Positions 14,055 through 63,087 of a DNA stretch of 64,000 bases are shown in pieces; positions within the stretch are counted from its first letter, which is position 1, and each line of letters starts with the position of its first letter. Location: contig DBDW01000008.1 in assembly GCA_002293825.1 (NCBI GenBank), positions 9,430 to 73,429 on the forward strand, written 5' to 3'. The notes below the pieces were generated by a model. The model was not told where the DNA came from. It did not search any database and saw only the letters and a list, made by a program, of their open reading frames with translations. Source of the DNA: Candidatus Magasanikbacteria bacterium UBA922. GTDB lineage: Bacteria; Patescibacteriota; Patescibacteriia; Magasanikbacterales; UBA922. Position numbers and translations under genes: made by a program.

Positions 14055-14109
14055 AAATTCAATTTTAGAAACTGCAGGACAGAGGATTTCCCCTGCCCTG
14101 CAGTGTGTT

Positions 14110-14325
14110 TCAGGTATGCCCCTTTGTCTCCACTTCTTCGTCATCTGTGCCATCGTCTGAGACGACTGCAAGGCAGCCGATAAGGAAGAGGGTCCCCACT
14201 ACCAGTGGCGGAAGTCTGCCGTACGGGCGTGAGAGCCCGTGCTTGATGAGGTGCCGAGCCATCTGCCCGACTTTTCCTTTCCAGAGTTTCTTCTCTGCAC
14301 GACGAAACGAAGTGGTCACTCGCAT
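14110..14325 (-). CDS. hypothetical 71-aa protein with a C-terminal TM helix (cassette B, gene 3)
   Basis: Its ATG overlaps the stop of the upstream 56-aa ORF (ATGA coupling). GC3-rich. Confidence 0.4.
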   Translation of the reverse strand: MRVTTSFRRAEKKLWKGKVGQMARHLIKHGLSRPYGRLPPLVVGTLFLIGCLAVVSDDGTDDEEVETKGHT

Positions 14326-14495
14326 CACTCGTCCCCCTCGAACCACACCTGACCGAAGAAGATGAAGCTGATCGAGTTCACAGTCCTCTTGAACGCAAAG
14401 GACAATTCCTCGAAAAATTCAGCGATCCCCATGAAGACATTCCTACCCCACTCTTTCATGAACTCTTCGAAACGTGGAAGTCCGCCAATCATCAT
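14325..14495 (-). CDS. hypothetical 56-aa protein, MMIGGLPRFEEFMKEW... (cassette B, gene 2)
   Basis: Preceded by AAAAGGGG. GC3-rich. Absent from the ORF track because it is under 60 aa. Confidence 0.35.
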   Translation of the reverse strand: MMIGGLPRFEEFMKEWGRNVFMGIAEFFEELSFAFKRTVNSISFIFFGQVWFEGDE

Positions 14496-14621
14496 GCACA
14501 CCCCTTTTCACCAAGACTTATTTCTTGCTTGGCTTATCACTACCCGAAAATAATTCCAGGTACTGATAAACATAGGTTCAGGGTGCGTCTCAAATAGAAA
14601 ACGTACCCTGAACCCCACCCT

Positions 14622-14963
14622 TTAGGCAAGCGCAACCTCGTTCACCGGCCAGTACCGGGTCGGAGACACGCGAGGAGGTGTACGAAGAATCGTACCGCCG
14701 GACCTGACGAGCACCTCGACATCTTTGACACGCTCAGAGATCTCGTCGTCCTGGACGACGAGGATGGTCGCACCAGTCTTCTTCACCATGACCACGAAGC
14801 CACCGGTGTAGCTCTGGTAGATGACAGAGACCGTGTACCTCACACCCTGCGAAAAACAGACGTGCGTCTGCACCCCACGAGGATTGATCGGACCACACCC
14901 TTCACGCAGGTCGAAGAGTTTCGAAATTTCCGCCAGAAAATTCTCGGCCACTTCACGAGTCAT
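14622..14963 (-). CDS. hypothetical 113-aa protein (cassette B, gene 1)
   Basis: ATG at 14963 with a strong SD (AAGGAGAGGGAG). GC3-rich. Followed by a 10-bp perfect-stem hairpin, GGTTCAGGGT...ACCCTGAACC. Confidence 0.5.
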   Translation of the reverse strand: MTREVAENFLAEISKLFDLREGCGPINPRGVQTHVCFSQGVRYTVSVIYQSYTGGFVVMVKKTGATILVVQDDEISERVKDVEVLVRSGGTILRTPPRVSPTRYWPVNEVALA

Positions 14964-15099
14964 ATCACTCCCTCTCCTTGTTAAGTGTTTTGTCCAAAAG
15001 GACACGTGACCCTAGCACACTCCTTGAACTTTTGCAAGTCCGAACATTGCCCACAGGATAATACCAAAAAACAATCTTTTTTGCAAGGTTGAGCAAAAG

Positions 15100-15149: not shown

Positions 15150-15315
15150 CCATATTCTACTGGAACTGGGGTGAAATTCCCCGACTGTGCCGCAACGGTA
15201 AAAGTCCGATCTTGTAGAATATGCATTCTCCCGAGCAGGAACTAATACACCCTATCTTTGTGGTATCGGTGTATTATATATACACATTCCTCCGTTCAGG
15301 GGAATTTTTTTATCT
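15150..15315 (+). ncRNA. cobalamin riboswitch (compact variant) with terminator expression platform (RS2)
   Basis: GGAACUGGGGUGAAAUUCCCCGACUGUGCCGCAACGGUAAAAGUCCG matches the cobalamin core (GGUGaAAuUCC ... CCGCaACnGUaA). P1 is AUUCUAC/GUAGAAU. A terminator, AUUCCUC-cguuca-GGGGAAU followed by UUUUUUU, sits 5 nt before the ATG of the DUF4430 gene. Confidence 0.6.
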
Positions 15316-15320
15316 CAATT

Positions 15321-15920
15321 ATGCACCAAAAGCTTTTATACTTCCTTATCACGCTTTTTACCACTGCAACACTGGTAAGTGGATATTCAGTAATCAGAGA
15401 TCAAAAATCACCTGTCGAAAAAAATACAGTTTCTACACAATTAAATACTGACACTCCAGCACACACACAAAACATTGAATCAGATATTAAAAATTCCATT
15501 CACTATACCGAAACTACTCAAAAAAAAGAGCCAGAATCAGACATTGAGAACAGCGAGATCATAAATACTTCCACTACTCCAGACACAGAAACTCATCCTT
15601 ACGAAATATTTGAAGCGAAAGTGACGCTCGCGATCGATGGAAAAAATCTTCATATCCCCTATCACGATAGCATGACCGCTGAACGTGCGATGCGGGACGT
15701 TGCACAACGGTATCCTGAATCATTCCACTATGAAGGAATCGAATATGGCGGGGACCTCGGCACATTCGTGACGGCGATCAACGGTAAGAAAGAAAATCCA
15801 CAAGAAAAAATGCGCTGGATCCTGTATCTCAACGGAAGCCCATCACCCAAAGGAATATCAATACTCACACTTAATCCAGACGATATACTCTCATGGAACT
15901 ATGAAAAAGAAACTCTATAG
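15321..15920 (+). CDS. secreted DUF4430 (transcobalamin beta-domain-like) protein
   Basis: Signal/TM followed by a C-terminal domain: TLAIDGKNLHIPY...YEGIEYGGDLGTFVTAINGK...WILYLNG. This family is typically found downstream of B12 riboswitches. Confidence 0.6.
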   Translation: MHQKLLYFLITLFTTATLVSGYSVIRDQKSPVEKNTVSTQLNTDTPAHTQNIESDIKNSIHYTETTQKKEPESDIENSEIINTSTTPDTETHPYEIFEAKVTLAIDGKNLHIPYHDSMTAERAMRDVAQRYPESFHYEGIEYGGDLGTFVTAINGKKENPQEKMRWILYLNGSPSPKGISILTLNPDDILSWNYEKETL

Positions 15921-18603
15921 CTTGCTCGTAATCATTTCACTTCTTTTCTCAAATATCGGGTTTGTATACGCATCAGAAGAATCTATCGAAGAAACGACTG
16001 CCGAAACCACAGAACAAATTCCCCAAGAAAATACTCCAGACGAAGCCGTAGAATCACCAACCTCAACTCCTGATACAATACCTGAAGATCTTCCTACGCG
16101 TACAGCAAAGCTCAGAATTGAAACATCTAAAGGGGTCTTGTTTGAAGATTCCGTTACCTTTAGTGCATGCAAACCATATGAGACGTCTGAAGAATATACA
16201 CTCAACGCACAATGCCTCATTGAGCAAACGGACGGATTGGACGTAGTTTGGACTCCAGGTGATGACGCATGGCTTGATCGAATAAACCAATACGGCACAG
16301 ACCTTTCAACGGGCTTATACTGGGCATACTTTGCAAATCTCGAATATGGGTCAGTCGCGTTGAATCATCTACCGGTACATGAAGGAGATGAGGTGTTGCT
16401 TGTGTACGGGGTAAACCCGCTTAAGATAGAAGTAGACACTCTTTCACCCACCCTTTACACAACAACAACGGTACGTGTATATGAATTTGGTTTTGATGAG
16501 TTTTGGAGTCCTGTATGGCTTCCTTCAAATAGTAGTACTCTATTACTGGATGAAAATTCGATTGCCGTCTCTCAAAATGGAGAAGCAATTCTCACATTTG
16601 ATACGCTCGACACACAAACACTTCGAGCAATTAAGACAGGACTTGCCTCAAGCAATAGTATTGAAGTGTACCCCATATTGCCAACAACCAAAGCTCAACT
16701 ACATGTAGTGGCACACGGACAAACTCTTTTCCACGACACCATAGAGGTGACAGCATGCATACCTAACGAAACACAGACTGATAGATACACATTAAACGCA
16801 CGATGCTTAATTGATCAAGCAATCGGCATTACACCTACCTGGAGCACCTATGGTACTGATTCCTTTCTCGATTCAATCAATGGTATAGACAACAACTTCG
16901 AAACCGGACTGTATTGGGGATATTTTATCAATCATGAATATGCTTCAACTGCGCTCAATCAATATATTCTCACTGAAGGAGATGAACTATTGATTACATA
17001 CAATACTATCCCACTCAAACTCACATTTTCGACCACTACCCCTACCACCGGAGACACAGTCACCGTATCTCTATACGAATTTGGTTTCGATGAGTTTTGG
17101 AGTCCTGCATGGCTAGCAGCGACCGGGGCATTATTCACAATAAACGGCACACCTGTAACCACCACTGATCACACTTATACATTTATCCCTACGACCACGA
17201 TTCCATATCTCATTCGTGCAGAAAAAGAAGGATATATCACGATTGAAAAAACCTTGGTGGCAACCACGACCCAATCTACCGGTGAATCAACTGAAAATAA
17301 TGAAGGAACAGGAGGCAATGGCAGCTCATCAGGGGGAAATATCACCAATCCTGTACAGCGTATGATCCAATTCCTCGATAGCACACAAAATGCCGACGGA
17401 TCATTTGGTTCAACTCCATTCCTGACTGATTGGGCAGCACTTGCCTATGGATCGTGGACAGACTCTTCACAAGGATTGAACGCTCTCAAAAATTACCTCA
17501 TCAGTGACCCTACCCCACTAGATGGTCCAAACGCAACCACAAATTACGCGCGCCGTAGTATGGCACTCATGGCACTCGGTATCAATCCTTATTCTGGAAC
17601 ACCCACCAACTATATTGAAAAAATAATTTCAGGATTTGACGGGACTCAATTCGGAGATACCGGTCTCATAAATGATGATATATTCGCACTCGTCCCATTA
17701 GTACACGCAGGGTATTCCAATAATCCGATTGTGGCTTCTACCACAAAATTTATCATTGAAAATCAATCAGCAAACGGATCATTTGGCTCAATCGATCTGA
17801 CCGCGGCTGCAATCCAAGCACTCTCTCCATTCTCATCTGACGACAATGTGCGCACCGCACTCACACACGCACGAACATATCTCAAAAATGCACAACGCAT
17901 TGATGCTGGTTTTGGCGATGTATATGCGACAGGATGGGTTCTCCAAGCAATCAGCGCACTTGGTGAACACATCTCTGACTGGCTAGTCAACGGCATCTCG
18001 CCAGTATCATATCTTACCAACGCACAAGCATCTGATGGAGGATTATTGAGTAGTGATGTACGAGCTAATCGTATCTGGTCTACCAGCTACGCAATTCCTG
18101 GACTGCTTGGCACCCCTTGGAATAAAATTCTTGCATCATTTGAGGCTCCAGTCACCACACCTGAAACCAGTGGACAAGGCTCATCTACCGCTACTACTAC
18201 CTTCGACATCATTACCCCTACCACCACTGTGGATAGCACAACCACCTCGACACCCATTTCACCAGAGATTACTATTACTGAAAACAGTGTAGATACGCTC
18301 GAACAAGGTTCCACATACACATCTTCCTCAATGCCGACCCCCATTATCACCTCTCGACAAGTAGAAAGCCAGACATCAATCGTACGAGGAGAACGAATTA
18401 TCGAGGATGTAGAACCATCTACAACACCCTCATCAACACCTACGAACACCCCTGAATCAACACTCGCGCCTGATGCAGATGGTGCGCAAACACTATCACA
18501 CACACCTACTCCCATCACCCGATACATCTTCTGGTCTTCATTTACTGCACTACTACTCGCACTCGGATATAGCTGGTTTATCCGCCCCACTTCAAAAAAA
18601 TAA
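15901..18603 (+). CDS. large surface-anchored protein combining two DUF4430-like repeats with prenyltransferase/squalene-oxidase-like repeats
   Basis: Signal peptide. Two repeats of about 110 aa (VTFSAC..YTLNA(Q/R)CLI...G.YW.YF.N.EY...ALN). QxxDGSFGS-type alpha-toroid repeats. An S/T/P-rich stalk and a C-terminal TM anchor. The layout resembles a transcobalamin alpha-plus-beta architecture. Confidence 0.55.
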   Translation: MKKKLYSLLVIISLLFSNIGFVYASEESIEETTAETTEQIPQENTPDEAVESPTSTPDTIPEDLPTRTAKLRIETSKGVLFEDSVTFSACKPYETSEEYTLNAQCLIEQTDGLDVVWTPGDDAWLDRINQYGTDLSTGLYWAYFANLEYGSVALNHLPVHEGDEVLLVYGVNPLKIEVDTLSPTLYTTTTVRVYEFGFDEFWSPVWLPSNSSTLLLDENSIAVSQNGEAILTFDTLDTQTLRAIKTGLASSNSIEVYPILPTTKAQLHVVAHGQTLFHDTIEVTACIPNETQTDRYTLNARCLIDQAIGITPTWSTYGTDSFLDSINGIDNNFETGLYWGYFINHEYASTALNQYILTEGDELLITYNTIPLKLTFSTTTPTTGDTVTVSLYEFGFDEFWSPAWLAATGALFTINGTPVTTTDHTYTFIPTTTIPYLIRAEKEGYITIEKTLVATTTQSTGESTENNEGTGGNGSSSGGNITNPVQRMIQFLDSTQNADGSFGSTPFLTDWAALAYGSWTDSSQGLNALKNYLISDPTPLDGPNATTNYARRSMALMALGINPYSGTPTNYIEKIISGFDGTQFGDTGLINDDIFALVPLVHAGYSNNPIVASTTKFIIENQSANGSFGSIDLTAAAIQALSPFSSDDNVRTALTHARTYLKNAQRIDAGFGDVYATGWVLQAISALGEHISDWLVNGISPVSYLTNAQASDGGLLSSDVRANRIWSTSYAIPGLLGTPWNKILASFEAPVTTPETSGQGSSTATTTFDIITPTTTVDSTTTSTPISPEITITENSVDTLEQGSTYTSSSMPTPIITSRQVESQTSIVRGERIIEDVEPSTTPSSTPTNTPESTLAPDADGAQTLSHTPTPITRYIFWSSFTALLLALGYSWFIRPTSKK

Positions 18604-19193: not shown

Positions 19194-19233
19194 AAAAAAA
19201 CATCCTGATGTATAGTCAGGATGTTTTTTATTA
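19194..19233. terminator. intrinsic terminator, a repeated element identical to the one at 22775
   Basis: AAAAAAACATCCTGAT-gtatag-TCAGGATGTTTTTTATT. Confidence 0.6.
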
Positions 19234-21378: not shown

Positions 21379-21550
21379 CATAAACATCAGGTAATTAATA
21401 CAGCACGTACAGTATATCACATGCATATGCACAGATATCTATCCGTATGTATATTGTTCTTATTATGTAAAATTGTTATGCTATGTGTTCCCCTGGCCAT
21501 GCAGCATGCCGGGGTTCGACAGAAATGCTGCCCAAAGGAGAAATGGCCAC

Positions 21551-21871
21551 ATGGCCAAAGTGCTGAATGTTACTCTCTCCGGTGATCCAAGAAATCCGAG
21601 CGGTCCCTGCATCTCACACGCGTTCAACAACTACCGTTCATTCTTCAAAGACACGATCGTGTTCTACGGAGAAACTGACTCGGGTGTTCATGTCGAACTC
21701 GAGGTGAAGGTGAGCGAACTGCGATGGCTCGAAAAAACAGGCTCCTGGCAAGAAATCAAAGGGGTGACTGCTGACTCAAGCTCATCGTACGTGGCACAGC
21801 TCGAGACGGATAAAAAGATCGGTTCCATCCGATGCACCTCTCTCGCCAAGGCGTCCTACGCTGAAGCCTGA
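21551..21871 (+). CDS. hypothetical 106-aa protein (GC-rich cassette C)
   Basis: AAGGAG SD and GC3-rich codons. Followed by an 11-bp perfect inverted repeat, TGCCCACACAC...GTGTGTGGGCA. A possible promoter, TTGTTC-17-TATGCT, lies upstream. Confidence 0.45.
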   Translation: MAKVLNVTLSGDPRNPSGPCISHAFNNYRSFFKDTIVFYGETDSGVHVELEVKVSELRWLEKTGSWQEIKGVTADSSSSYVAQLETDKKIGSIRCTSLAKASYAEA

Positions 21872-22774: not shown

Positions 22775-22811
22775 AAAAAACATCCTGATGTATAGTCAGG
22801 ATGTTTTTTAT
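22775..22811. terminator. intrinsic terminator, a repeated element identical to the one at 19194
   Basis: AAAAAACATCCTGAT-gtatag-TCAGGATGTTTTTTATTTCACATT. Confidence 0.6.
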
Positions 22812-22817
22812 TTCACA

Positions 22818-53304: not shown

Positions 53305-53709
53305 TTATTTTTTGATTTTCTTTCCATGAGGATCCACATCTGGATTACCGAGAAATTTCGCGAGACGCTCGATCACCTTGTCTGAAAACGCATGCTCCAG
53401 TTTGTGAGCTTCCGCATGAATATCCGACGACGGAATATCGAGTACTGTATGAAGAAATACTTCAATCAAACGATGCTTGTATGTGAGTTTTTCTGCAAGA
53501 CCATGCCCTCGTGTAGTCAATGTAATACCTCCACTTCGATTGGTCTTGATCAATCGTGCACGCTCGAGATCATGCACACGTTCGGAAACCGTAGAACGAG
53601 CGAGCGAAAGATATCGTGCAATATCGATAATACGAACCTGTACCCCTTGTTCACCAAGACAATGAATTGCTCTCACATAATCTTCTCTTGTTGATGTAAT
53701 TTTTTTCAT
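53305..53709 (-). CDS. DtxR/MntR-family metal-dependent repressor
   Basis: N-terminal wHTH (DYVRAIHCL...RIIDIARYLSLARSTVSERV) and metal-site residues in DIHAEAHKLEHAF. Confidence 0.85.
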   Translation of the reverse strand: MKKITSTREDYVRAIHCLGEQGVQVRIIDIARYLSLARSTVSERVHDLERARLIKTNRSGGITLTTRGHGLAEKLTYKHRLIEVFLHTVLDIPSSDIHAEAHKLEHAFSDKVIERLAKFLGNPDVDPHGKKIKK

Positions 53710-53718
53710 ATATCCTAT

Positions 53719-53738
53719 TTGTTCGTATATACGAACAA
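53719..53738. promoter_or_regulatory. candidate MntR/DtxR-type operator
   Basis: Perfect 20-bp palindrome TTGTTCGTATATACGAACAA, 10 nt upstream of the repressor start codon. Confidence 0.5.
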
Positions 53739-53895
53739 TACTATACCACGACCTATTGATATCGTCAAGAAGCCTGTGTTCCTCTCATGATACATTGACA
53801 ACAAAACCCTACTATGATAGCTTCTTTCCAAGTTTGGACTGTCTCAGTCTAGACTCTAGCCAACAACCAACCCTTGCGACGACCAAGGAGGACAT

Positions 53896-53991
53896 ATGGA
53901 CCCGCCGAAGAAAAACCTGGTGAAAAAAGATAACATGATGGACAAGTCCAGCATCGGCAAGACGGCGCGCACGACGACCGCGGCACGCTGA
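53896..53991 (+). CDS. hypothetical 31-aa lysine-rich peptide (GC-rich cassette E, first ORF)
   Basis: A consensus SD (AAGGAGGA) sits 6 nt before the ATG. GC3-rich codons, unlike the AT-rich host genes. Confidence 0.35.
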   Translation: MDPPKKNLVKKDNMMDKSSIGKTARTTTAAR

Positions 53992-54144
53992 TCCACGACA
54001 CGGAGGTCGAGGATCCGCACCCCCCCACCGTAAGGAAAGGAAATGAAAAAGTATGCAGTCTTCTAGCGATTCCAACCTTTGGCTTTCGTGACCACAGTCA
54101 ACCTTACTACCGCAGATGCGGTACGAAAAAAGCTGTGCTCGCAC

Positions 54145-54199
54145 CTAGAGCCACACCTATCACACGAACAACAACTCAAGTGATATGGTGTGGCTCTAG
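54145..54199. repeat. long nested inverted repeat (13-bp perfect stem plus 6-bp inner stem)
   Basis: CTAGAGCCACACC-TATCAC...GTGATA-tg-GGTGTGGCTCTAG. Confidence 0.6.
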
Positions 54200-54220
54200 A
54201 CTACTATTATCATCTATCTC

Positions 54221-54243
54221 AAAAACGCCTATAAGGCGTTTTA
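54221..54243. terminator. bidirectional intrinsic terminator
   Basis: AAAAACGCC-tataa-GGCGTTTTATT. Confidence 0.55.
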
Positions 54244-54254
54244 TTGGTTTTCTA

Positions 54255-54283
54255 TTGACAATTTCTCGTTATTTGTGTACCAT
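54255..54283 (+). promoter_or_regulatory. near-consensus sigma-70 promoter
   Basis: TTGACA, a 17-nt spacer, then TACCAT. Confidence 0.5.
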
Positions 54284-54376
54284 CTCACGGCCTGTTTTAC
54301 CTGTGTTCCAGTATTCACTGATACACAACAGGTTACATAACTACACGAGTAACAACAATACACTTTTGGAGCAATC

Positions 54377-54601
54377 GTGCACGATCCTCGTTTTTCCTCG
54401 TTCTTCTACGACACCCTCCCTGACAAGAGTGAAAGCGCCCGATCGACCACGCTCGTCCCCGACGACTCGATCCCCACGGGACCGCTACACCCGCGTCGAG
54501 TACGGGCAGGAGGCAACCGCCGGATCCAGACCGACAACGGTCTCATGAAGTTCACCGGCGAGGAGACGCCAGGCAACACAGGTGACGGAAACGTCGCCTA
54601 A
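54377..54601 (+). CDS. hypothetical 74-aa acidic/proline-rich protein (GC-rich cassette E, second ORF)
   Basis: GTG start with GGAG 5 nt upstream and GC3-rich codons. The ORF on the opposite strand is probably frame noise. Confidence 0.4.
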   Translation: MHDPRFSSFFYDTLPDKSESARSTTLVPDDSIPTGPLHPRRVRAGGNRRIQTDNGLMKFTGEETPGNTGDGNVA

Positions 54602-54705
54602 GAAGCACTCTCTGTAGTTACCGGCGCTGTATTCAACCGACTTCTCGTAGTTGGGTACGGCGTCCGGACTCAACTTGTTCATTCTAAGATAATCTTATCT
54701 ACAAG

Positions 54706-54765
54706 AAAAAGCAGATAGCAAGTAGCAAACTAATTTGATACTACACTATCTGCTTTTTTATTTTG
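54706..54765. terminator. bidirectional terminator hairpin with a large loop
   Basis: AAAAAGCAGATAG...(loop)...CTATCTGCTTTTTTATTTT, between the convergent cassette E gene and guaC. Confidence 0.5.
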
Positions 54766-54775
54766 AACAAAATCT

Positions 54776-55741
54776 TTACGTAATTACATGTTCGACATTT
54801 CTAATATCATAGAGTGTCGTTCCTCCACTATACGAAATTGCACTTTGCAAATCTTCTTCAATCTCTTGTAACTTTTGCTCATACGTCATCGTATTGCATT
54901 CGATGTGACGTAAAAATCCTTCTACATGATGGCGCGTACCTTTATTATGCTCTGATGCTGAGCCAAAATATATCTTCTTTACTTCCCCATCAACACTGAT
55001 CGTCTCACCAGGAGAATCGACACATGCACTAAACATACCCCCAATCATCACCATATCTGCTCCTGCATGAATCGCTTTTGCAATATCTCCATTATGCTTG
55101 ATTCCTCCATCTGCGATAAGTATGGTTTTTAATTTTTTTTCTTTTTTCACTTGCCCACATGCACTCACACACGAATACATCGGATACGTAAATCCTGTCT
55201 TAAATTTGGTCGAACATGCAGACCCGCCACCAATTCCTATTTTTACCGCATCAGCCCCCCATTCCGACAAATCCACCAACGCGTCTCCACTTGCCACATT
55301 TCCTGCAATAATAAAACATTCAGGAAAATGTTTTCTCGTATGTTCCAAAATTTTCTTGACTGCCAGACTATGTCCATGTGCAATATCGATTGTTACCGCA
55401 TCAACACGAAGATTCTTTGACTTCAAGGTATCGATTAGTGCGTAATCAGCATCTTTTACTCCGAGAGAAATTGAAATAAAAATATCTTGATTCTTCTCGA
55501 TCCACGCAACAATCTCTTCGTATGCATAAAATCTATGGAGAATATAAAAATATTGATGTTCTGCCATCCAGCGTGCAAGCGTAAAATCAATGGTGCATTT
55601 CATATTTGCAGGCATCACCGGCACCTTCCACTGTTTTCCAGCATACTGTACCGACGTATTACACTCTGATCGAGAATTCACGACACAGAGTTTTGGCACA
55701 AGCCACACCTGTGAATATTCGAGTGCTTTTTCCATAGACAT
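54776..55741 (-). CDS. GMP reductase / IMPDH-family TIM-barrel oxidoreductase lacking CBS domains
   Basis: IADGGIKHNGDIAKAIHAGADMVMIGGMFSA, and a catalytic Cys region (GIGGGSACST). Confidence 0.7.
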   Translation of the reverse strand: MSMEKALEYSQVWLVPKLCVVNSRSECNTSVQYAGKQWKVPVMPANMKCTIDFTLARWMAEHQYFYILHRFYAYEEIVAWIEKNQDIFISISLGVKDADYALIDTLKSKNLRVDAVTIDIAHGHSLAVKKILEHTRKHFPECFIIAGNVASGDALVDLSEWGADAVKIGIGGGSACSTKFKTGFTYPMYSCVSACGQVKKEKKLKTILIADGGIKHNGDIAKAIHAGADMVMIGGMFSACVDSPGETISVDGEVKKIYFGSASEHNKGTRHHVEGFLRHIECNTMTYEQKLQEIEEDLQSAISYSGGTTLYDIRNVEHVIT

Positions 55742-55806
55742 GTATGGTTAAAACTTATGATATATATTATTTTTGCACGTAAAAAAAGGGTTATGACTAA
55801 CCCTTT

Positions 55807-57831
55807 TTATTCTACGACTGCTTTGATACGGCGAACCCCTGCACTTACCGCTTCTTCTTTTACAATTTTGAATTTTCCGATCACTCCCGTGTGTTCCACA
55901 TGTGGTCCTCCACAGAGTTCTCTACTAAACGTCGGAGCTTTCGGATCTGCGACTGGCAACTCTTTTGGATCACCCACACTGTACACTTTTACCATATCTT
56001 CGTATTTGTCTCCAAATAGCCCCATTGCCCCGCGTTTTCTCGCTTCTTCGAGAGGTAATATCTCGAATCCTACAGGATAATCTCGCTCAATTGCTGCATT
56101 TACCAATTCTTCAACGGCTGCAATCTGCTCGGGTGTCATTTTTTCTCCATGCGCAAAATCAAATCTCAAACGCTCGGGCGTGATATTACTTCCTTTTTGT
56201 ACCGCATGAGGACCTAACACCTTTTGTACTGCAGCATGGAGTAAATGTGTAGCGGTATGATATTTCAGACTCATCTCACTATGATCCGCGAGCCCACCTT
56301 TGAATTTCTGCTCAGATGCTTGACGAGAAAGTTCTTGATGTCTATTTTTTTCATTCTCAAACCCTTGTAAATCAACTTTTAACGCCCTCTCATTTGCAAG
56401 TTCTAGAGTTAATTCAATTGGAAAACCATATGATTGCACCAAATCAAAAGCTTGAACACCATCAATCACATTATCATCAAGTGCATTTTTATCTTTTATA
56501 ATACTTTCAAATTTTTTAAGACCTTGTTCTAAGGTATTTCTAAATTTCTTCTCCTCTTTTTCCAATTCATTCAAAATATCAATTCGTTTTTCATTTAAAT
56601 TAGCGTAAGCGCTGGAATAATAATTAATAAAACAATCAGCAACAAATGAAGTAAAGTTCTCTTTTATTCTAAGCTTTAAACCAAATCTCACTGCTCTTCT
56701 AATAAGCCTTCTAACAAAATATCCTTGATCTTTATTCCCAGGTAACACCCCATCACTAATCAAAAATGTTGCAGCACGAATATGATCAAGAATTACTCTA
56801 AACGCATAGGTAATTTCTTTTTGACTGATAGGATAAGTTCCATCTTGGATTTTTTCTGTCTCAAGTTTATTTCCAGAACTAAAAACATATTCAGCGGTGA
56901 AAGGTTCACTTTGATATCTAAGTTTTGTTTTTTCTTCAAGCAAAAATATTGCATCCTCAAATACATCAATCCTAAACACATCAGGATTTCCATTCAGTGC
57001 CGCTGCAATACGTTCGAGCCCTCCGCCAAAATCCACATTCTGCTGCTGTAATTTTTCAAAACCATTCTCAGTCTTCTGATATTCCATGAATACATTGTTT
57101 CCAATTTCCATGAATCGACCACAGTCGCAATTCACATGACACGGACTATCTTTCCATTCTGATGTTTCGTGCAATCCGAGCTCTACTCCAAAATCCCAAA
57201 ACATTTCAGTGTCTGGGCCACCAGGCTCTCCGACTGGCATGTTGCCAGGCACCCCACTTCTGCTCCACCAATTTTTCTTTTCTGAATAATAAAAAATTCG
57301 CTCACCTGGTTTCATCCCATCTTTTTCTGGATCTTCCCCGATACCCGCATCGATATTTTTTTCTTTATAAAGTTTCTGCCACAATTCTGCAGCTTCGGTA
57401 TCACGAGGAATACCAAGCTCTTCATTTCCTTTGAAACACGTGAAATACAACCGATTCGGATCGAGACCGACTTCTGTGGTCAAAAATTCCCACATCCAGG
57501 GAATCTGCTCTTGCTTAAAATAATCACCCAAGGACCAGTTACCAAGCATTTCAAAAAAGGTAGTGTGGCGATTATCACCCACTTCTTCGATATCTTGTGA
57601 TCGAAAACATTTTTGCGAATCAGTAATTCTGGTTCCCTGAGGATGCTTCTGTCCGAGTAAATATGGAACCATCGGTTGCATTCCTGAGCCAGTAAACAGA
57701 GTAGTAGGATCATTCTCCGGAATAAGCGAAGAAGATGGGATTACCACGTGTCCCTTCTGTGCAAAAAATTCGAGATATTTTTTTCTAAGTTCTGATGTAG
57801 ACATACCTGTGCAATCGTACACGAAATTCAC
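55807..57831 (-). CDS. alaS: alanine--tRNA ligase, short form lacking the C-Ala domain
   Basis: Class-II catalytic core (FTGSGMQPMVPYLLG), tRNA-recognition and editing domain with HTATHLLHAAVQKVLG. It ends after about 674 aa. Confidence 0.85.
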   Translation of the reverse strand: MNFVYDCTGMSTSELRKKYLEFFAQKGHVVIPSSSLIPENDPTTLFTGSGMQPMVPYLLGQKHPQGTRITDSQKCFRSQDIEEVGDNRHTTFFEMLGNWSLGDYFKQEQIPWMWEFLTTEVGLDPNRLYFTCFKGNEELGIPRDTEAAELWQKLYKEKNIDAGIGEDPEKDGMKPGERIFYYSEKKNWWSRSGVPGNMPVGEPGGPDTEMFWDFGVELGLHETSEWKDSPCHVNCDCGRFMEIGNNVFMEYQKTENGFEKLQQQNVDFGGGLERIAAALNGNPDVFRIDVFEDAIFLLEEKTKLRYQSEPFTAEYVFSSGNKLETEKIQDGTYPISQKEITYAFRVILDHIRAATFLISDGVLPGNKDQGYFVRRLIRRAVRFGLKLRIKENFTSFVADCFINYYSSAYANLNEKRIDILNELEKEEKKFRNTLEQGLKKFESIIKDKNALDDNVIDGVQAFDLVQSYGFPIELTLELANERALKVDLQGFENEKNRHQELSRQASEQKFKGGLADHSEMSLKYHTATHLLHAAVQKVLGPHAVQKGSNITPERLRFDFAHGEKMTPEQIAAVEELVNAAIERDYPVGFEILPLEEARKRGAMGLFGDKYEDMVKVYSVGDPKELPVADPKAPTFSRELCGGPHVEHTGVIGKFKIVKEEAVSAGVRRIKAVVE

Positions 57832-58220
57832 GATTAACGCAAGTATTTGAGGGCAACAAAAAGAAGAATTCCTACCAAAATGAGGTACGGCCAGGTAGCT
57901 GCGAAAAAGTCCCAGATTCCGATGATACCATCCATAGATTAAGGGTATTAAAATTTGAAGTAATTGGGGTTTTTAGCCCTAATATATCGGGCTTTTAGAG
58001 TATACCACACTTTCTAAAGAAGAATACAGGCTCTATTGAAAAACCCGTTCTGATATGCAGCATTAGAACACTCAACACAACTAGCTGCAAAAGGGTTGGT
58101 AGAATGTCTAAATTCTCATTCTCAAAAAGAAATAGAGAGCTTCGAACACTCGTTTGAGCGGACACTGTCCCGTGTTTGTCCCCCGACGTATGTCGAGGTC
58201 TCGATGAACACGAGCAGCAC

Positions 58221-58250
58221 AAACACATTCACCTATACAGGTGTTTTTTA
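58221..58250 (+). repeat. left copy of a 30-bp direct repeat containing a terminator hairpin
   Basis: AAACACATTCACCTATACAGGTGTTTTTT. An identical copy lies at 58635. Confidence 0.75.
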
Positions 58251-58359
58251 TTATGTAAAAAACACCATACAATTGACAAAATTATAAAAACATGGTATTT
58301 TGATTTGTCCTTTTGGACCACCCATCTTTGATGTAAGTGCACTCGAACAGGAGTCTGAC

Positions 58360-58563
58360 ATGGTAGAAAAAATCGTCACCTTCCCCAAGGAAGGTACTGA
58401 GCAAGAAATCCGAAACATGCACAGTCAAGAAGCCAACCTGGCAATCGTTGCCCAGGCAAATGACTGGCTTACCCAGAAGGCCGACAGCATCGACGTTCTC
58501 CATCGGTCAGTCCACACGAGTGGAGGCCTACTGGTCATCACGGTCTGGTATAACGATCGGTGA
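58360..58563 (+). CDS. hypothetical 67-aa protein (GC-rich cassette F)
   Basis: Promoter TTGACA-17-TATTTT at 58273..58301. SD AGGAG and GC3-rich codons. Followed by a 10-bp inverted repeat, CTGATTCCCG...CGGGAATCAG. Confidence 0.5.
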   Translation: MVEKIVTFPKEGTEQEIRNMHSQEANLAIVAQANDWLTQKADSIDVLHRSVHTSGGLLVITVWYNDR

Positions 58564-58634
58564 TCAGATAACGGACACCACAACTGATTCCCGTTTTTGC
58601 AACCCTCCTCGGGCAAGTAAATACGGGAATCAGT

Positions 58635-58664
58635 AAACACATTCACCTATACAGGTGTTTTTTT
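58635..58664 (+). repeat. right copy of the 30-bp direct repeat / terminator
   Basis: AAACACATTCACCTATACAGGTGTTTTTTT. Confidence 0.75.
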
Positions 58665-58668
58665 ATTT

Positions 58669-59757
58669 TTACGCAATAACTCCCCCACCGAGACATTCAC
58701 CATCTTTATAAAGTACCGCAAACTGACCCGGACTAATCGCTCGTTGAGGATTTTCACAAATGATAGTGATATTTCGAGGATCAGACACCTGTATCGTGCA
58801 TGTTTCAAGTTTCTGACGATGACGAAAACGTACCAGACAATCAAATGAAGATTTCAATGGTCGACCAGCAATCCAATTCATTTCACAAATTTCTATTCTT
58901 GTAGTAAAAAGCATCGGATCGGTATCATATCCTACGACAAGCTCATTCTTCTCCACATCTTTACCCACCACATAGAGCGGACGTTTTCCTCCTGTCTGTT
59001 CAAAACCATGGCGCTGACCAATCGTGTAAAATGGCAATCCTTCATGCTCGCCAATTTTTTCCCCTTTTGAATTTTTTACCATACCCCTTCTTCCTCTAAT
59101 ACGTTTTTCCAAAAAACTTTTTATCGGTACTTCACCAATAAAACAGATTCCCATACTTTCTTCCTTATTGGCAGTAGGTAGGTCAAATTTTTTTGCAAGT
59201 TTTCTCACTTCAGATTTTGTATATTTTCCAATTGGAAACATTGCATGAGAAAGTTGTTCTTGATTGAGTTGGTGCAAAAAATAAGTCTGATCTTTGTCAG
59301 TATCAACTGATTCAAGCAAACGATAGAGGCCTCTTTTTTTCTCTACCTGTGCATAGTGTCCTGTCGCGAGAATGTCAAATCCTTTCTGTTTTGCGACCTC
59401 AAGCCAGGCACCATATTTAATAAGACTATTGCACAAGATATCAGGATTTGGTGTGCGTCCTGCTTCGTATTCTCGATATACATATTCCAATACTTTTTCC
59501 TGATACTCTTTTCTAAAATCTAATTGTAATAGCGGAATATCTAAACGTGCTGCCACCCGAAGTGCATCACGATATTCTGGAATCCAGCACGATTCACCAT
59601 CAGTCGTGATTGCTTCATCTGCAGTATCATAATTGATCATGAACGCACCTGTAACGTCATATCCCTGACGTACCAAAAGAGCGGCAGCAACTGATGAGTC
59701 GACACCGCCGGACATAGTCATGAGAATTTTGGATTTTGTTGTATTTCTAAACCACAT
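58669..59757 (-). CDS. mnmA: tRNA-specific 2-thiouridylase
   Basis: PP-loop SGGVDSS, and the catalytic Cys and C-terminal domains are conserved. The start is probably near MWFRNTT/MTMSGG. Confidence 0.9.
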   Translation of the reverse strand: MWFRNTTKSKILMTMSGGVDSSVAAALLVRQGYDVTGAFMINYDTADEAITTDGESCWIPEYRDALRVAARLDIPLLQLDFRKEYQEKVLEYVYREYEAGRTPNPDILCNSLIKYGAWLEVAKQKGFDILATGHYAQVEKKRGLYRLLESVDTDKDQTYFLHQLNQEQLSHAMFPIGKYTKSEVRKLAKKFDLPTANKEESMGICFIGEVPIKSFLEKRIRGRRGMVKNSKGEKIGEHEGLPFYTIGQRHGFEQTGGKRPLYVVGKDVEKNELVVGYDTDPMLFTTRIEICEMNWIAGRPLKSSFDCLVRFRHRQKLETCTIQVSDPRNITIICENPQRAISPGQFAVLYKDGECLGGGVIA

Positions 59758-59758
59758 A

Positions 59759-60205
59759 TTATAATCGTGCAGAACCTCCCATATTTTGTCCCTCTCCCCT
59801 CTGTCGTTCCATTTCACGTTCATGCTCCTCCCTTCGCATCTCGGTTACCAATTCTACAGCCCAATCTCCAATAACCTCTCTTTGGTGAAATTGTTCTACT
59901 GGACCCACAAACAATCCTCCTTCTGGAATTTCATCCGTTCCATACTCCTTGAATAAGTATCGATTGGCAATTGTAAGATCTGAAATAAGTGCATTATGTT
60001 TAATCGTTCGAAGCTTATCAGCATTTGCAAACTTATCTTGAAAATCATACGATCCTTGATGAATTGCGAGTATCCTTTCTGTACGCTCAATCTGACGAAT
60101 ATAATCAGTCGCTTTGACAAGGACATTTTCAATTAATTTTAATGCTTGAGGATCTGAAGTCACTTTGTCCTTTATTTCACGTATACGATCCGTATATTTA
60201 CCCAT
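59759..60205 (-). CDS. hypothetical protein
   Basis: A 148-aa ORF directly upstream of mnmA with no motif recognised. Confidence 0.4.
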   Translation of the reverse strand: MGKYTDRIREIKDKVTSDPQALKLIENVLVKATDYIRQIERTERILAIHQGSYDFQDKFANADKLRTIKHNALISDLTIANRYLFKEYGTDEIPEGGLFVGPVEQFHQREVIGDWAVELVTEMRREEHEREMERQRGEGQNMGGSARL

Positions 60206-60267
60206 ATTCTTGACTTATTAGTAAAAATGTGTAACAATAGGCCGTTCCCCGAAAAGGAGAAGGGAAC

Positions 60268-60582
60268 ATGAAGACTTTGCTAGAAGCCTATCAAAAAGCA
60301 GTCCTTCACGCCAGAGACAAAGATACACTGTTCACGCTCCTCGAACAATTCGAGGATGCAATAGCAGCGATTCTTACACATCTGGACGCGAGGGGTTCTG
60401 CCCATCTTGTCAACAAGGAGGTGAACAATGTGACAGAACTTTCTCACTCTGTCACAGAAGCAAAAAAACTACTTGCAAAACTTCCGATCGAGGGACTTGT
60501 CCTCGATTTTGTCTCCGATGAGGAGATGGTGAGTTTTGCAATCGAACTGGGATATACTCGCACTTTGTCACGTGCGAGATAA
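60268..60582 (+). CDS. hypothetical 104-aa protein (possible cassette G)
   Basis: Strong SD (AAAGGAGAAGGG), moderately GC-enriched. Followed by terminator ACTCGTGG...CCACGAGT-CTTTCTTTTT at 60585..60628. Confidence 0.45.
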   Translation: MKTLLEAYQKAVLHARDKDTLFTLLEQFEDAIAAILTHLDARGSAHLVNKEVNNVTELSHSVTEAKKLLAKLPIEGLVLDFVSDEEMVSFAIELGYTRTLSRAR

Positions 60583-61101: not shown

Positions 61102-63087
61102 TTACGTAAGATCGTCAAAAGAAATTTCCTCATCTTCAAGTAAATCTTTTGGTGCTCGATCAATTGAAGGCGGAACACTCTTCGTCGACGGTGGAGTCAC
61201 TATCGGCGCATCGTTTGTTTTTTCTGCAACAACGGGAGGTGTCTGTGTTTGTGTCTGGAGATCTGCAAACGCAGTCGCAAACGGACGGTGCGATTGTGAT
61301 CCCGCTGGTTGAGCAGGTGTGTGAGAAATCACTCCTTCCCCACCCCCATTTCTCTTCTTGCGTTTTCGTCTACGTTTGCGCTTTCCTTCACCTGGCAATG
61401 ATAATTCAGACGTCCCCGCAGGCACACTCTGACTCACGACGTGCGGTACGCTAGAACGTGGAGATGTACTCGTATTCATCCGCGGTTGCTCAGCACGCTG
61501 GTCTTGATTCCGCGATGTCACCGCTGGTTCTCCCGCAGGCATTGTTTTTTCGACGACACGCTGAGCTGATTCAGCAACATTTTTTTGATGTTGCTCAAAC
61601 CGTTTCTGATTTTGTGATTTTGGTTCATCATTCTTTTTCTTCTGATCAAACACCACTCTACGATCTTCTTTTCTCACAGGAGCATTATTCATCTGCGTAC
61701 GCTGAGTAGTATTTTGAACTGGTGCAGATGATGTACTACGTACCCCTTCAATTCCCTGATCTTCCTCATCATTCGTAGATTGGCTCCATCGTGAAATTTT
61801 TTCCTCGACAACCTCTTTCTTTCGTCCATATCGTTCTTGTGACACACGCACCACTTTTTCCGATGATTTGGTAGAGCTTGCGAGTGGTGGTAGTGTCGCA
61901 GCGCTAAACGGCTGTGACGCAACACCGTCGATCATGAGTTTCAAAATAATCTGATATTTTGTCAGATTTACAATATCTTCTTCGGTAAATGTAGGAGTAA
62001 ATTCTTTGACAAGCATTTCAGCATCAGCACCACCAACACGGAAGGTGACAATCGTTCCTACGTTTCCAAATACTGCATTTGCAACCACTTCATCCAACTG
62101 TGCAACATATTGATGAGCCATAATCAGACTCAGCCGATATTTTCGAGCCTCAGACAAAATATTTGCAAATGACGGAGTTGCAAAATTCTGAAACTCATCA
62201 ACATAGAGGAAGAAATCTTTTCGATCGTTTTCTGGCGTATCGACACGTTCCATTGCAGCAAGTTGTAATTTGGTAATCAACATTCCCCCAAGCAATCGAC
62301 TATTATCTTCCCCGATACGTCCTTTTGATAAATTCATGATAAAAATTTTTCTCGTATCCATTATCTCACGCACATTGATCGTAGATTTCACCTGCGCCAC
62401 CATGTTTCTGATAATTGAAGCCGACAAAAATTGTCCGATTTTATTCTGAATTGGGGCTACTGCTTCTTTTGCATAGCGATCATCATAATTTGCAAATTCA
62501 TCACGCCAAAAGGCTTTAATTACTGGATCTTTGAGGTGGCGCACGACACGCTTACGATATTCCTTATCTGAAAGCAGACGATTGACACCGAGCAAAGTGG
62601 ATCCTGGATAGTCTAGAAGTGCGAGAAGTGTATTATTCAATATATATTCCATACGCGAACTCCACACATCAGGCCAAATCTTCTTGAACGTTCCCATGAG
62701 TCCGGCTGCGACTAGATGTTTCTGCTCTTCAGTTTTTACTTCAAGAATATTAAATCCAATCGGATTTTCCACATCGGCAGGATTGAGATATACCACATCA
62801 TTCAGACGCCATGACGGAATATGATCAATAATCTTTTCTGCAAAATCTCCATGTGGATCGACGAGCCCCACTCCATGTCCTGCATAAATATCCGACAACA
62901 CCATGTTTTCCATGATAGTGGTTTTTCCCATTCCTGTCTTCCCGATCACGTACATGTGACGTCTACGGTCATCTGTTTTAATTCCAAAACGCCGTACCTG
63001 ATTACGGAAATTGGTCTGTGCAAAAACACAGATATCTTGGGAAACTTTTGGAGCCTGACCTTTACTCGTGAGCTGTGGACTGGGCAT
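61102..63087 (-). CDS. VirD4/TraG/TraD-like coupling-protein family ATPase with a long low-complexity C-terminal tail
   Basis: HMYVIGKTGMGKTT Walker A, YVDEFQNF, and LIMAHQYVAQL. A paralog of the ORF at 1..2167. The last roughly 250 aa are Q/P/E/K/R-rich. Confidence 0.7.
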   Translation of the reverse strand: MPSPQLTSKGQAPKVSQDICVFAQTNFRNQVRRFGIKTDDRRRHMYVIGKTGMGKTTIMENMVLSDIYAGHGVGLVDPHGDFAEKIIDHIPSWRLNDVVYLNPADVENPIGFNILEVKTEEQKHLVAAGLMGTFKKIWPDVWSSRMEYILNNTLLALLDYPGSTLLGVNRLLSDKEYRKRVVRHLKDPVIKAFWRDEFANYDDRYAKEAVAPIQNKIGQFLSASIIRNMVAQVKSTINVREIMDTRKIFIMNLSKGRIGEDNSRLLGGMLITKLQLAAMERVDTPENDRKDFFLYVDEFQNFATPSFANILSEARKYRLSLIMAHQYVAQLDEVVANAVFGNVGTIVTFRVGGADAEMLVKEFTPTFTEEDIVNLTKYQIILKLMIDGVASQPFSAATLPPLASSTKSSEKVVRVSQERYGRKKEVVEEKISRWSQSTNDEEDQGIEGVRSTSSAPVQNTTQRTQMNNAPVRKEDRRVVFDQKKKNDEPKSQNQKRFEQHQKNVAESAQRVVEKTMPAGEPAVTSRNQDQRAEQPRMNTSTSPRSSVPHVVSQSVPAGTSELSLPGEGKRKRRRKRKKRNGGGEGVISHTPAQPAGSQSHRPFATAFADLQTQTQTPPVVAEKTNDAPIVTPPSTKSVPPSIDRAPKDLLEDEEISFDDLT

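Follow-up and report, generated by a model that had tools for sequence, protein, structure and literature searches.

The window analysed here, a stretch of 64,000 nucleotides (64 kb) from a Candidatus Magasanikbacteria genome, carries an exact 29-nt repeat, AAACACATTCACCTATACAGGTGTTTTTT, in two copies between the housekeeping genes mnmA and alaS. On balance, we consider these copies to be the terminal segments of two neighbouring cassette modules, in an array whose cassettes are shuffled by recombination at composite terminator-promoter junctions. The anatomy of the units, their conservation, the covariation of their structure, their variable content and a mosaic pattern of identity between relatives are direct observations, and from these we infer both a mechanism of recombination and a function for the RNA. 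An earlier, sequence-only reading of the same DNA had interpreted the repeats differently, as a host terminator duplicated by the insertion of a mobile unit.

The two copies lie at 58221-58249 and 58635-58663, 414 bp apart from start to start and with 385 bp between them. The bases adjoining the copies differ (c or t on the 5′ side, T6-A or T7-A on the 3′ side), so the exact repeat is 29 nt long; the direct repeats that the sequence-only reading placed at 58221 and 58635 are indeed exact, but it had given them 30 nt and the bracketed interval 384 bp. No third copy with up to three mismatches is present in the 64 kb, where the chance expectation is 0 copies. Over this region, the window is matched without any difference by contigs from four assemblies (JGI 3300014773, JGI 3300005689, ENA ERZ761600 and Logan SRR5325111), and the arrangement is therefore not an assembly artefact. 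A terminator scan scored both copies as the hairpin CACCT-ATAC-AGGTG followed by a T-run on the plus strand, which agrees with the hairpin and U-tract described earlier, and both have the form of a Rho-independent terminator, with a 5-bp stem (3 GC pairs), a 4-nt loop and T6 or T7. Taken alone the stem is weak, and the activities of terminators and promoters given here are predictions. The repeats and their surroundings are organised as follows, ORF denoting an open reading frame.

58012-58158, plus strand: relic body of the alaS-proximal cassette (slot 1), GC 0.37, with no similarity to any relative
58159-58256, plus strand: 3′ module copy 1, 75.4 bits with the module covariance model (E 1.9e-14), holding the first repeat (R1, 58221-58249)
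58273-58301, plus strand: cassette promoter TTGACA-17-TATTTT with an extended -10 TG, matched at 10/12 positions in a promoter scan
58307-58318, plus strand: 5′ leader hairpin GTCC-TTTT-GGAC at the predicted transcript start, fold -5.2 kcal/mol
58360-58563, plus strand: ORF67, a 67-aa orphan, with AGGAG ahead of it at 58349-58353
58580-58670, plus strand: 3′ module copy 2, 68.3 bits (E 7.2e-13), with a diverged helix, abutting the mnmA stop codon

The promoter and the AGGAG-led, GC-rich 67-aa ORF were thus found between the repeats as the sequence-only reading had described them, and the 10-bp inverted repeat that it noted is also present, although this is actually a 12-bp helix spanning 58583-58634. 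The helix, P1 of module copy 2, reads CTGATTCCCGTTTTTG ... TAAATACGGGAATCAG and is followed by the second repeat (R2, 58635-58663); the whole copy folds at -33.5 kcal/mol (z -7.3), with the helix kept by compensatory changes relative to the consensus. Module copy 1 is built from the same parts, comprising a P1 helix at about 58166-58218 with a variable tip, the linker AAACACATT, and the terminator hairpin with T6. Upstream of it, slot 1 has a decayed promoter (-35 TTGAAA at 58036-58041, with a 12-nt spacer) and a remaining ORF of only 17 aa (58104-58157). At this position relatives carry TTGACA-17-TATTAT directly beside the divergent alaS promoter, together with an ORF of 95-113 aa belonging to a family that we call A. 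The upstream unit of the window is a decayed cassette, its ORF lost, its promoter degraded and its module alone intact. The locus thus consists at present of an alaS-proximal cassette reduced to its module and an mnmA-proximal slot that now holds the orphan ORF67.

Each 29-mer forms the last third (linker plus terminator) of a module of about 90 nt, with the consensus CTGTCCCGTGTTTGTCC, a variable hairpin tip, GGACGAACACGGGCGGCAC, AAACACATT, CACC(loop)GGTG and T6-7. A covariance model of the module was built from 15 copies and run against the window with filters off, and it returned only the two sites, at 75 and 68 bits, the next best score in the 64 kb being 18.8 bits. Across 27 sources the model gave 15 matches, all of them within the clade, between mnmA and alaS and antisense to mnmA; 13 of these lie outside the window, in seven related genomes (whose loci are denoted by L numbers). 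The repeat is not a generic terminator, because the matches of the model are specific to this locus. A terminator found at many unrelated places was the outcome that the sequence-only reading had named as fatal to its own proposal, and two places in 64 kb is not that outcome. It had also suggested a search for the same repeat around other cassettes; a related module ends cassettes in relatives at the same locus, and no further 29-mer occurs in the window. Module copy 1 is orthologous to the single mnmA-adjacent module of L004 and L044 and to the terminal modules of L045, L046, L049, L051 and L054, and in all array-bearing relatives the module starts 0-45 nt after the mnmA stop codon. Rfam 15 gave no match at 58159-58256 or 58580-58670 in either the gathering scan or the E<=1 scan, the latter covering 53600-58800, and two patterns for the module had 0 matches in viral contigs.

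The structure of the module is maintained through sequence change. The 12-bp core helix P1 is paired in 97% of cells and 5 of its 12 pairs show compensatory double changes, with a covariation score that was reached by 0 of 500 shuffles; slid registers fall to 35-53% pairing. The helix is continuous, with 12 bp plus 5 bp and one bulge, and its arms read CCCGTGTTTGTC ... GACGAACACGGG, with GTT on the 5′ arm and AAC on the 3′ arm whichever strand is considered. Frequent U-G wobbles in P1 fit the cassette-sense strand only. Nearly all copies have helix tips of different sequence and length, yet these always fold, and the terminator hairpin also changes by compensation between species. A terminator/antiterminator switch based on GUGUUUGU in the 5′ arm versus ACAAACAC in the linker was considered and set aside, as P1 already satisfies the 5′ arm and neither a leader ORF nor a ligand-binding fold is evident. 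In bacteria, stem-loops at the 5′ and 3′ ends protect mRNAs from exonucleolytic decay. It is probable that the 5′ hairpin, the 3′ helix and the terminator stabilise the cassette mRNAs. Transcription of the array converges on the 3′ end of mnmA, and the terminator would block antisense read-through into that gene.

The genus-level clade to which the window belongs contains about 12 species, with mnmA 78-83% identical to that of the window, and the locus was read in eleven. An array is present in 8 of the 11, the most basal included, with 0 to 3 cassettes per locus among species whose mnmA proteins are 78-95% identical. At the empty sites (L003, L005 and L047/48) the mnmA stop almost directly meets the TATACT -10 box of the promoter for alaS and the small ORF ahead of it (the mini-ORF, described below). 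The sequence-only reading had anticipated relatives with a single copy of the terminator, and such relatives exist in L004 and L044, but in both the module is the end of another cassette, while the cassette-free sites have no terminator or module copy at all. As the repeat is part of the module that ends every cassette, its description as a duplicated host target does not stand.

A typical cassette comprises a TTGACA-17-TAnnnT promoter, a leader usually with GATTTGTCC(T/C)TT..GGAC, a ribosome-binding site, an ORF of 60-120 aa and the module. The ORFs have no Pfam or PHROG match, no homologues were found for the cassette ORF of L004, and the families listed here are mutually unrelated, with A and B recurring at the same relative positions in several species.

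Family A: L044, L046, L052 and L054, always alaS-proximal
Family B: L046, L049 and L051-53, mnmA-proximal, members of 63-73 aa
Family C-like: L004 and L045
Family D: L046
Family E: L051, L052 and L054
ORF67: window only, mnmA-proximal

Together, a module and the promoter that follows it make up a composite terminator-promoter junction of about 100-110 nt, which is conserved between species. An alignment of these junctions (A6) spans 5 species, at whose junctions the leader motif GATTTGTCC(T/C)TT is invariant, and the junction of the window shares 84% identity with that of L046 over 63 nt, the ATTAT..AAAAAACA spacer included. The window cassette promoter is conserved with the cassette promoters of L045, L046 and L051-54. 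With its 5′ leader it is orthologous to the second slot of L046, which carries other ORFs (families B and D). Because the junction is conserved between the window and L046, the second unit of the window occupies a slot with L046-orthologous framing.

A neighbour-joining tree of mnmA places L046, with its two-slot array, at the base and the empty-site genomes within array-bearing lineages; therefore, the array is probably ancestral and the empty sites are probably losses. Turnover is apparent in the comparison of L052 with L054, whose mnmA proteins are 95% identical. L052 has one extra family B cassette, bounded by modules. Cassette E is 100% identical between the two over about 540 nt, beside a cassette A that is only 65-75% identical, and mnmA is itself a mosaic in which identity ranges from 75 to 100%, a 300-nt block reaching 100% and the 3′ end only 75-80%. 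The 100% blocks correspond to L052 941-1240 and L054 1143-1442 in mnmA and to L052 1901-2440 and L054 1708-2244 in the cassette, with flanks at 65-80%. The pattern of these blocks indicates recent recombination between lineages. The block in the cassette has a sharp edge immediately after the module linker, and its other edge fades through the next module into cassette A. In the window, the jump in identity lies between P1 and the linker, on the opposite side of the linker from the L052/L054 edge, and in L046 two cassettes share an identical 38-nt linker-plus-terminator end, with a loop unlike that of the window and a boundary in the helix arm. Breakpoints cluster near the linker, not at one position.

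These observations enabled us to propose a model in which cassettes are gained, lost and replaced through recombination between conserved junctions, either within a genome or with DNA of related strains. In this model, the sharp jump to 100% identity at the linker would be the recombination or gene-conversion breakpoint of the event that placed ORF67 and its own hairpin. That event would have joined the incoming ORF67 and hairpin to the resident linker-terminator, leaving the 29-nt identity as its trace.

Several points weigh against this model. Neighbouring terminators differ in L045, L049 and L051-53, and with identical ones in just two of the five multi-cassette arrays, homogenisation is no general rule. 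Perfect identity over 29-38 nt is near the lower limit for RecA-dependent exchange. No direct evidence of recombination intermediates or of ORF67-lacking alleles was found, and exact-protein look-ups returned identical contigs only (4 assemblies). The base sequence of P1 is conserved beyond structural need, a pattern that a binding protein, perhaps a recombinase encoded elsewhere, could also account for. About 10-13 kb was examined per relative, and further modules elsewhere in those genomes are possible. Finally, the phylogeny is a neighbour-joining tree of one protein, mnmA.

A rival reading is integron-like site-specific capture, in which the helix is an attC-like site for an unlinked recombinase and circular cassettes enter by crossover in the linker, so that an identical linker-terminator comes to lie on both sides. 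The small co-oriented orphan ORFs, each closed by an imperfect palindrome whose base is conserved and whose tip varies, fit this idea, as do the differing cassette content of close relatives, the conservation of the helix base beyond pairing need, and the two sharp breakpoints that bracket the 11-nt linker (P1|linker in the window and linker|terminator in L052/L054). We nevertheless think it unlikely. A Pfam search of the scanned window ORFs detected no recombinase, integrase or transposase domains, in keeping with the earlier remark that no recombinase is nearby, and no tyrosine or serine recombinase or HUH enzyme was found in the 64 kb or in 8 relatives, whose arrays were inspected to a distance of about 5 kb. 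The GTT...AAC polarity of the helix is opposite to that of attC R''/R' (RYYYAAC...GTTRRRY) and there is no unpaired central spacer. Moreover, every cassette has its own promoter and terminator, the L046 identity boundary falls inside the helix arm and not in the linker, identity declines gradually at the far edge of the L052/L054 block, as homologous exchange would lead one to expect, and the module was not found in viral contigs. A more far-reaching version would make the module the recombination site of an undescribed gene-capture platform of bacteria of the Candidate Phyla Radiation (CPR), with the helix base and linker recognised by an unlinked recombinase and promoter-bearing cassettes captured, stacked and swapped at one site. 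This we regard as something of a long shot; if true, it would represent an integron-like function with a different site architecture and self-expressed cassettes, and the persistent doubling of GC content at third codon positions (GC3) would set the cassettes apart as a genome compartment of their own, driven by recombination.

Conversely, the array might never have been mobile. In such an account, an ancestral two-slot array was inherited vertically under concerted evolution only, ORF67 evolved rapidly or was overprinted in place, and gene conversion over a short tract between adjacent paralogous modules produced the 29-nt identity. In favour of this account, the two-slot layout and the junction recur in the basal L046, which also has an identical terminator pair of its own, families A and B hold their relative positions across species, the GC3 excess extends to all cassettes, old and new, and the length of ORF67 (67 aa) resembles that of family B (63-73 aa). 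However, ORF67 does not detectably resemble family B or the other cassette ORFs, the P1 helix of its unit is unlike all others, and 0 to 3 cassettes are found among species with mnmA proteins 78-95% identical. The L052/L054 mosaic, with a 100% identical cassette beside one at 65-75%, needs lateral exchange, and an entirely vertical history is in our judgement improbable. The proposal of the sequence-only reading, in which the insertion of a mobile element into a host terminator doubled 30 bp of it, giving either a target-site duplication or an attL/attR pair, is less probable still, and we consider it very unlikely. Exact, sharp-edged repeats around a self-contained unit and single-copy relatives at the same position are what it would lead one to expect, but what was taken for a host terminator is itself part of a further cassette of this family, cassette-free genomes have no terminator there, and the diverged homology of the two units spans the whole ~90-nt module. 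Terminal inverted repeats are absent at 58250 and 58634, none of the scanned window ORFs has a transposase or integrase domain, 29 bp far exceeds the usual length of target-site duplications, and L046 has a resident slot whose promoter framing is orthologous to that of the insert. Two further candidates were discarded. Replication slippage, which the same reading had offered as an alternative, cannot create 385 bp of unrelated sequence, and the 385 bp between the repeats are unrelated to the flanks; tandem duplication with divergence is at odds with ORF families that are unrelated to one another.

The composition of the cassettes is distinct from that of their neighbours. ORF67 has a GC content of 0.52, with GC3 at 0.62 and GC2 (second positions) at 0.35, compared with a GC3 of 0.30 in mnmA and alaS, GC1 (first positions) and GC2 being similar. 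Every cassette ORF (window, L004, L044-46, L049, L051-54) has a GC3 of 0.55-0.76 against 0.28-0.37 in the adjacent mnmA, and the clade-shared families A and B show the same excess. The pattern of GC3 far above GC2 supports the cassette reading frames. Because shared, long-resident families have it too, the GC excess is a standing property of the array and not a mark of recent import. The view that the GC-rich cassettes are mobile additions is upheld in one respect, since the unit is a discrete, self-contained one at a plastic site and carries a lineage-specific orphan ORF, but its composition is no sign of recent acquisition. Biased gene conversion at a recombination hot spot, selection on mRNA, or a shared external pool of cassettes are possible causes of the excess. 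That such an anomaly (GC3 about 0.6-0.75 against 0.3) can persist in long-resident genes calls for caution in equating GC islands with recent imports.

ORF67 has no homologues but itself in a word-indexed search or in an exhaustive HMMER search of 1.84 billion representatives (sets of 5.8 and 1.84 billion proteins), has no Pfam or PHROG match, and shows no detectable similarity to family B or the other cassette ORFs. The sequence-only reading had recommended structure prediction for this protein, and a single-sequence AlphaFold2 model is confident (mean local confidence, pLDDT, 82.3; predicted template-modelling score, pTM, 0.66), with a beta-alpha-alpha-beta-beta topology. Structure searches gave sub-threshold matches only, to dodecin in the PDB (E 0.12, template-modelling score, TM, about 0.4) and to small uncharacterised phage proteins in BFVD (TM up to 0.66, E >= 0.009). 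ORF67 is probably a real small protein.

Among known systems, the closest parallels are with the promoter-early stem-loop (PeSL) motifs of T4-type phages, which are about 100 bp long, combine a stem-loop with a promoter, flank ORFans and are proposed to mediate insertions and deletions (indels) by homologous recombination in hyperplastic regions, with mini-circles possibly involved (Arbiol et al. 2010, PMC2839356; Comeau et al. 2014, PMC4122927). An ORFan with two flanking motifs in one phage corresponds to a single motif in a relative (PMC2839356, PMC4122927). The array described here likewise has a repeated intergenic motif of ~100 nt, with a stem-loop terminator and a strong sigma-70-type promoter beside small ORFans, and its indels and replacements are bounded by the motif (L052 versus L054; the window versus L004, L044 and L046). 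It differs in lying in a CPR chromosome and not in a phage, in having its module at one locus (two copies in 64 kb) where PeSLs number about 50 copies per phage genome, in adding a long variable-tip helix upstream of the terminator and a conserved 5′ leader hairpin, and in having ORFs with twice the GC3 of host genes.

The resemblance to integron arrays, and to clusters of attC sites lacking an integron integrase (CALINs), lies in co-oriented small, mostly orphan ORFs, each with an imperfect palindrome behind it whose outer arms are conserved and whose centre varies, and in content that differs among relatives. However, the palindrome lacks an R''/R' consensus and an unpaired central spacer, its GTT/AAC polarity is reversed, and, unlike in a complete integron, no IntI is encoded in the 64-kb window or within about 5 kb in 8 relatives, although CALINs lack IntI by definition. 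Unlike integron cassettes, those of the array carry promoters and terminators and sit at a fixed housekeeping intergenic site in one genus. A literature search on integrons in Patescibacteria turned up nothing relevant. Phage morons are promoter-ORF-terminator units of atypical composition that lie between genes, and the array unit is similarly self-contained, differs in composition from its neighbours and stands between two conserved genes; it differs from morons in having no phage context, in being stacked with shared conserved ends, and in a compositional bias that is persistent clade-wide and does not reflect a recent foreign origin. In Neisseria, minimal mobile elements are cassettes that lie between conserved genes and are exchanged by homologous recombination in these flanks. 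The fixed site, the different small cassettes of each lineage and the mosaic identity of mnmA recall these elements, with the difference that the array cassettes carry conserved internal junctions and so can be stacked and exchanged one at a time.

The locus is best filed under modular shuffling mediated by regulatory cassettes, with some resemblance to cassette arrays, and we know of no prior description of it in CPR bacteria. Such bacteria combine very small genomes with numerous orphan genes, and the ways in which they acquire and try out new genes are little understood. Under the model we favour, a compact, genus-wide site would plug unrelated small ORFs into a ready-made expression frame and exchange them between lineages, extending the PeSL-mediated shuffling of T4-type phages to a bacterial chromosome. 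In addition, the covarying structured RNA/DNA motif can now be used for searches elsewhere.

The host is a CPR bacterium with roughly 42% GC, its relatives bear Magasanikbacteria-type names, and the neighbours of the array in the window are bacterial housekeeping genes (mnmA, alaS, murG and ribosomal proteins). On the minus strand the order is mnmA, an 837-nt intergenic region, a 33-aa mini-ORF and alaS.

55807-57831, minus strand: alaS, alanyl-tRNA synthetase (Pfam tRNA-synt_2c, 6.6e-120), a conserved flank of the array
57834-57935, minus strand: 33-aa hydrophobic mini-ORF, ending 2 nt before the alaS GTG start
57999-58007, minus strand: extended -10 box TGGTATACT of the mini-ORF/alaS operon promoter, with AGTATAC invariant in alignment A7
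58669-59823, minus strand: mnmA, tRNA 2-thiouridine synthase (Pfam tRNA_Me_trans, 5.9e-73), a conserved flank of the array

More than 20 Magasanikbacteria-like loci preserve the mnmA-to-alaS synteny, and the spacer between the two genes ranges from 0 to about 5.7 kb. The mini-ORF is present in all close relatives, the empty-site ones included; its sequence is conserved in L003, L004 and L005, and it is called as a 33-aa gene in L056. The -10 box is also conserved in empty-site genomes and, in relatives, stands back to back with the first cassette promoter. The mini-ORF marks the ancestral edge of the intergenic region.

The surroundings of the array vary in other ways. The window and L044-L046 share a DUF3232 gene and a divergent 104-aa ORF upstream of mnmA (59759-60582 in the window), both absent from L003-L005, L047, L049 and L051, which makes a second presence/absence polymorphism beside mnmA. 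Three relatives carry a large gene for a membrane protein in the intergenic region, on the mnmA strand: L004 (7828-9894), L045 (6596-8020) and L049 (2566-3987). In L045 and L049 this is a DUF4153 gene that separates two cassettes; that of L004 is a 688-aa ORF located between the mini-ORF and alaS. Genes for four-helix-bundle proteins of the bAvd / 23S_rRNA_IVP type are found just upstream of mnmA in L045 (3728-4093) and L054 (164-529). The bAvd type is an accessory protein of diversity-generating retroelements. A connection with such retroelements was dropped, as the L045 and L054 stretches that were read contain no reverse transcriptase and no template/variable repeat pair.

Elsewhere in the window, an exact 38-nt bidirectional terminator, AAAAAACATCCTGATGTATAGTCAGGATGTTTTTTATT, occurs twice, at 19195-19232 and 22775-22812, both convergent gene junctions. 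The pair brackets 3.58 kb with a 491-aa ORF, an extracytoplasmic function (ECF) sigma factor, a GC-rich ORF of about 121-132 aa (21473-21871) and a HAD hydrolase, and represents a second case in this genome of identical terminators around a gene block. At 53780-54770 there are two stacked GC-rich units, with GC up to 0.66, each with a TTGACA promoter and its own terminator and neither with an Rfam match; the first (53780-54245) is absent from L005, and the second (about 54363-54767) has 88.6% nucleotide identity to L005 10233-10643, with a 5-nt indel. Paralogues of a TraG/VirD4-like coupling protein (TrwB_AAD_bind) at 122-2167 on the plus strand and 61102-63087 on the minus strand form a 70%-identical inverted repeat about 60 kb apart. 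Finally, an AdoCbl-II riboswitch (15152-15222, plus strand, 44.8 bits) lies directly upstream of DUF4430-domain genes at 15258-18603, and a GC-rich, ORF-poor stretch at 14076-14975 stands just before it.

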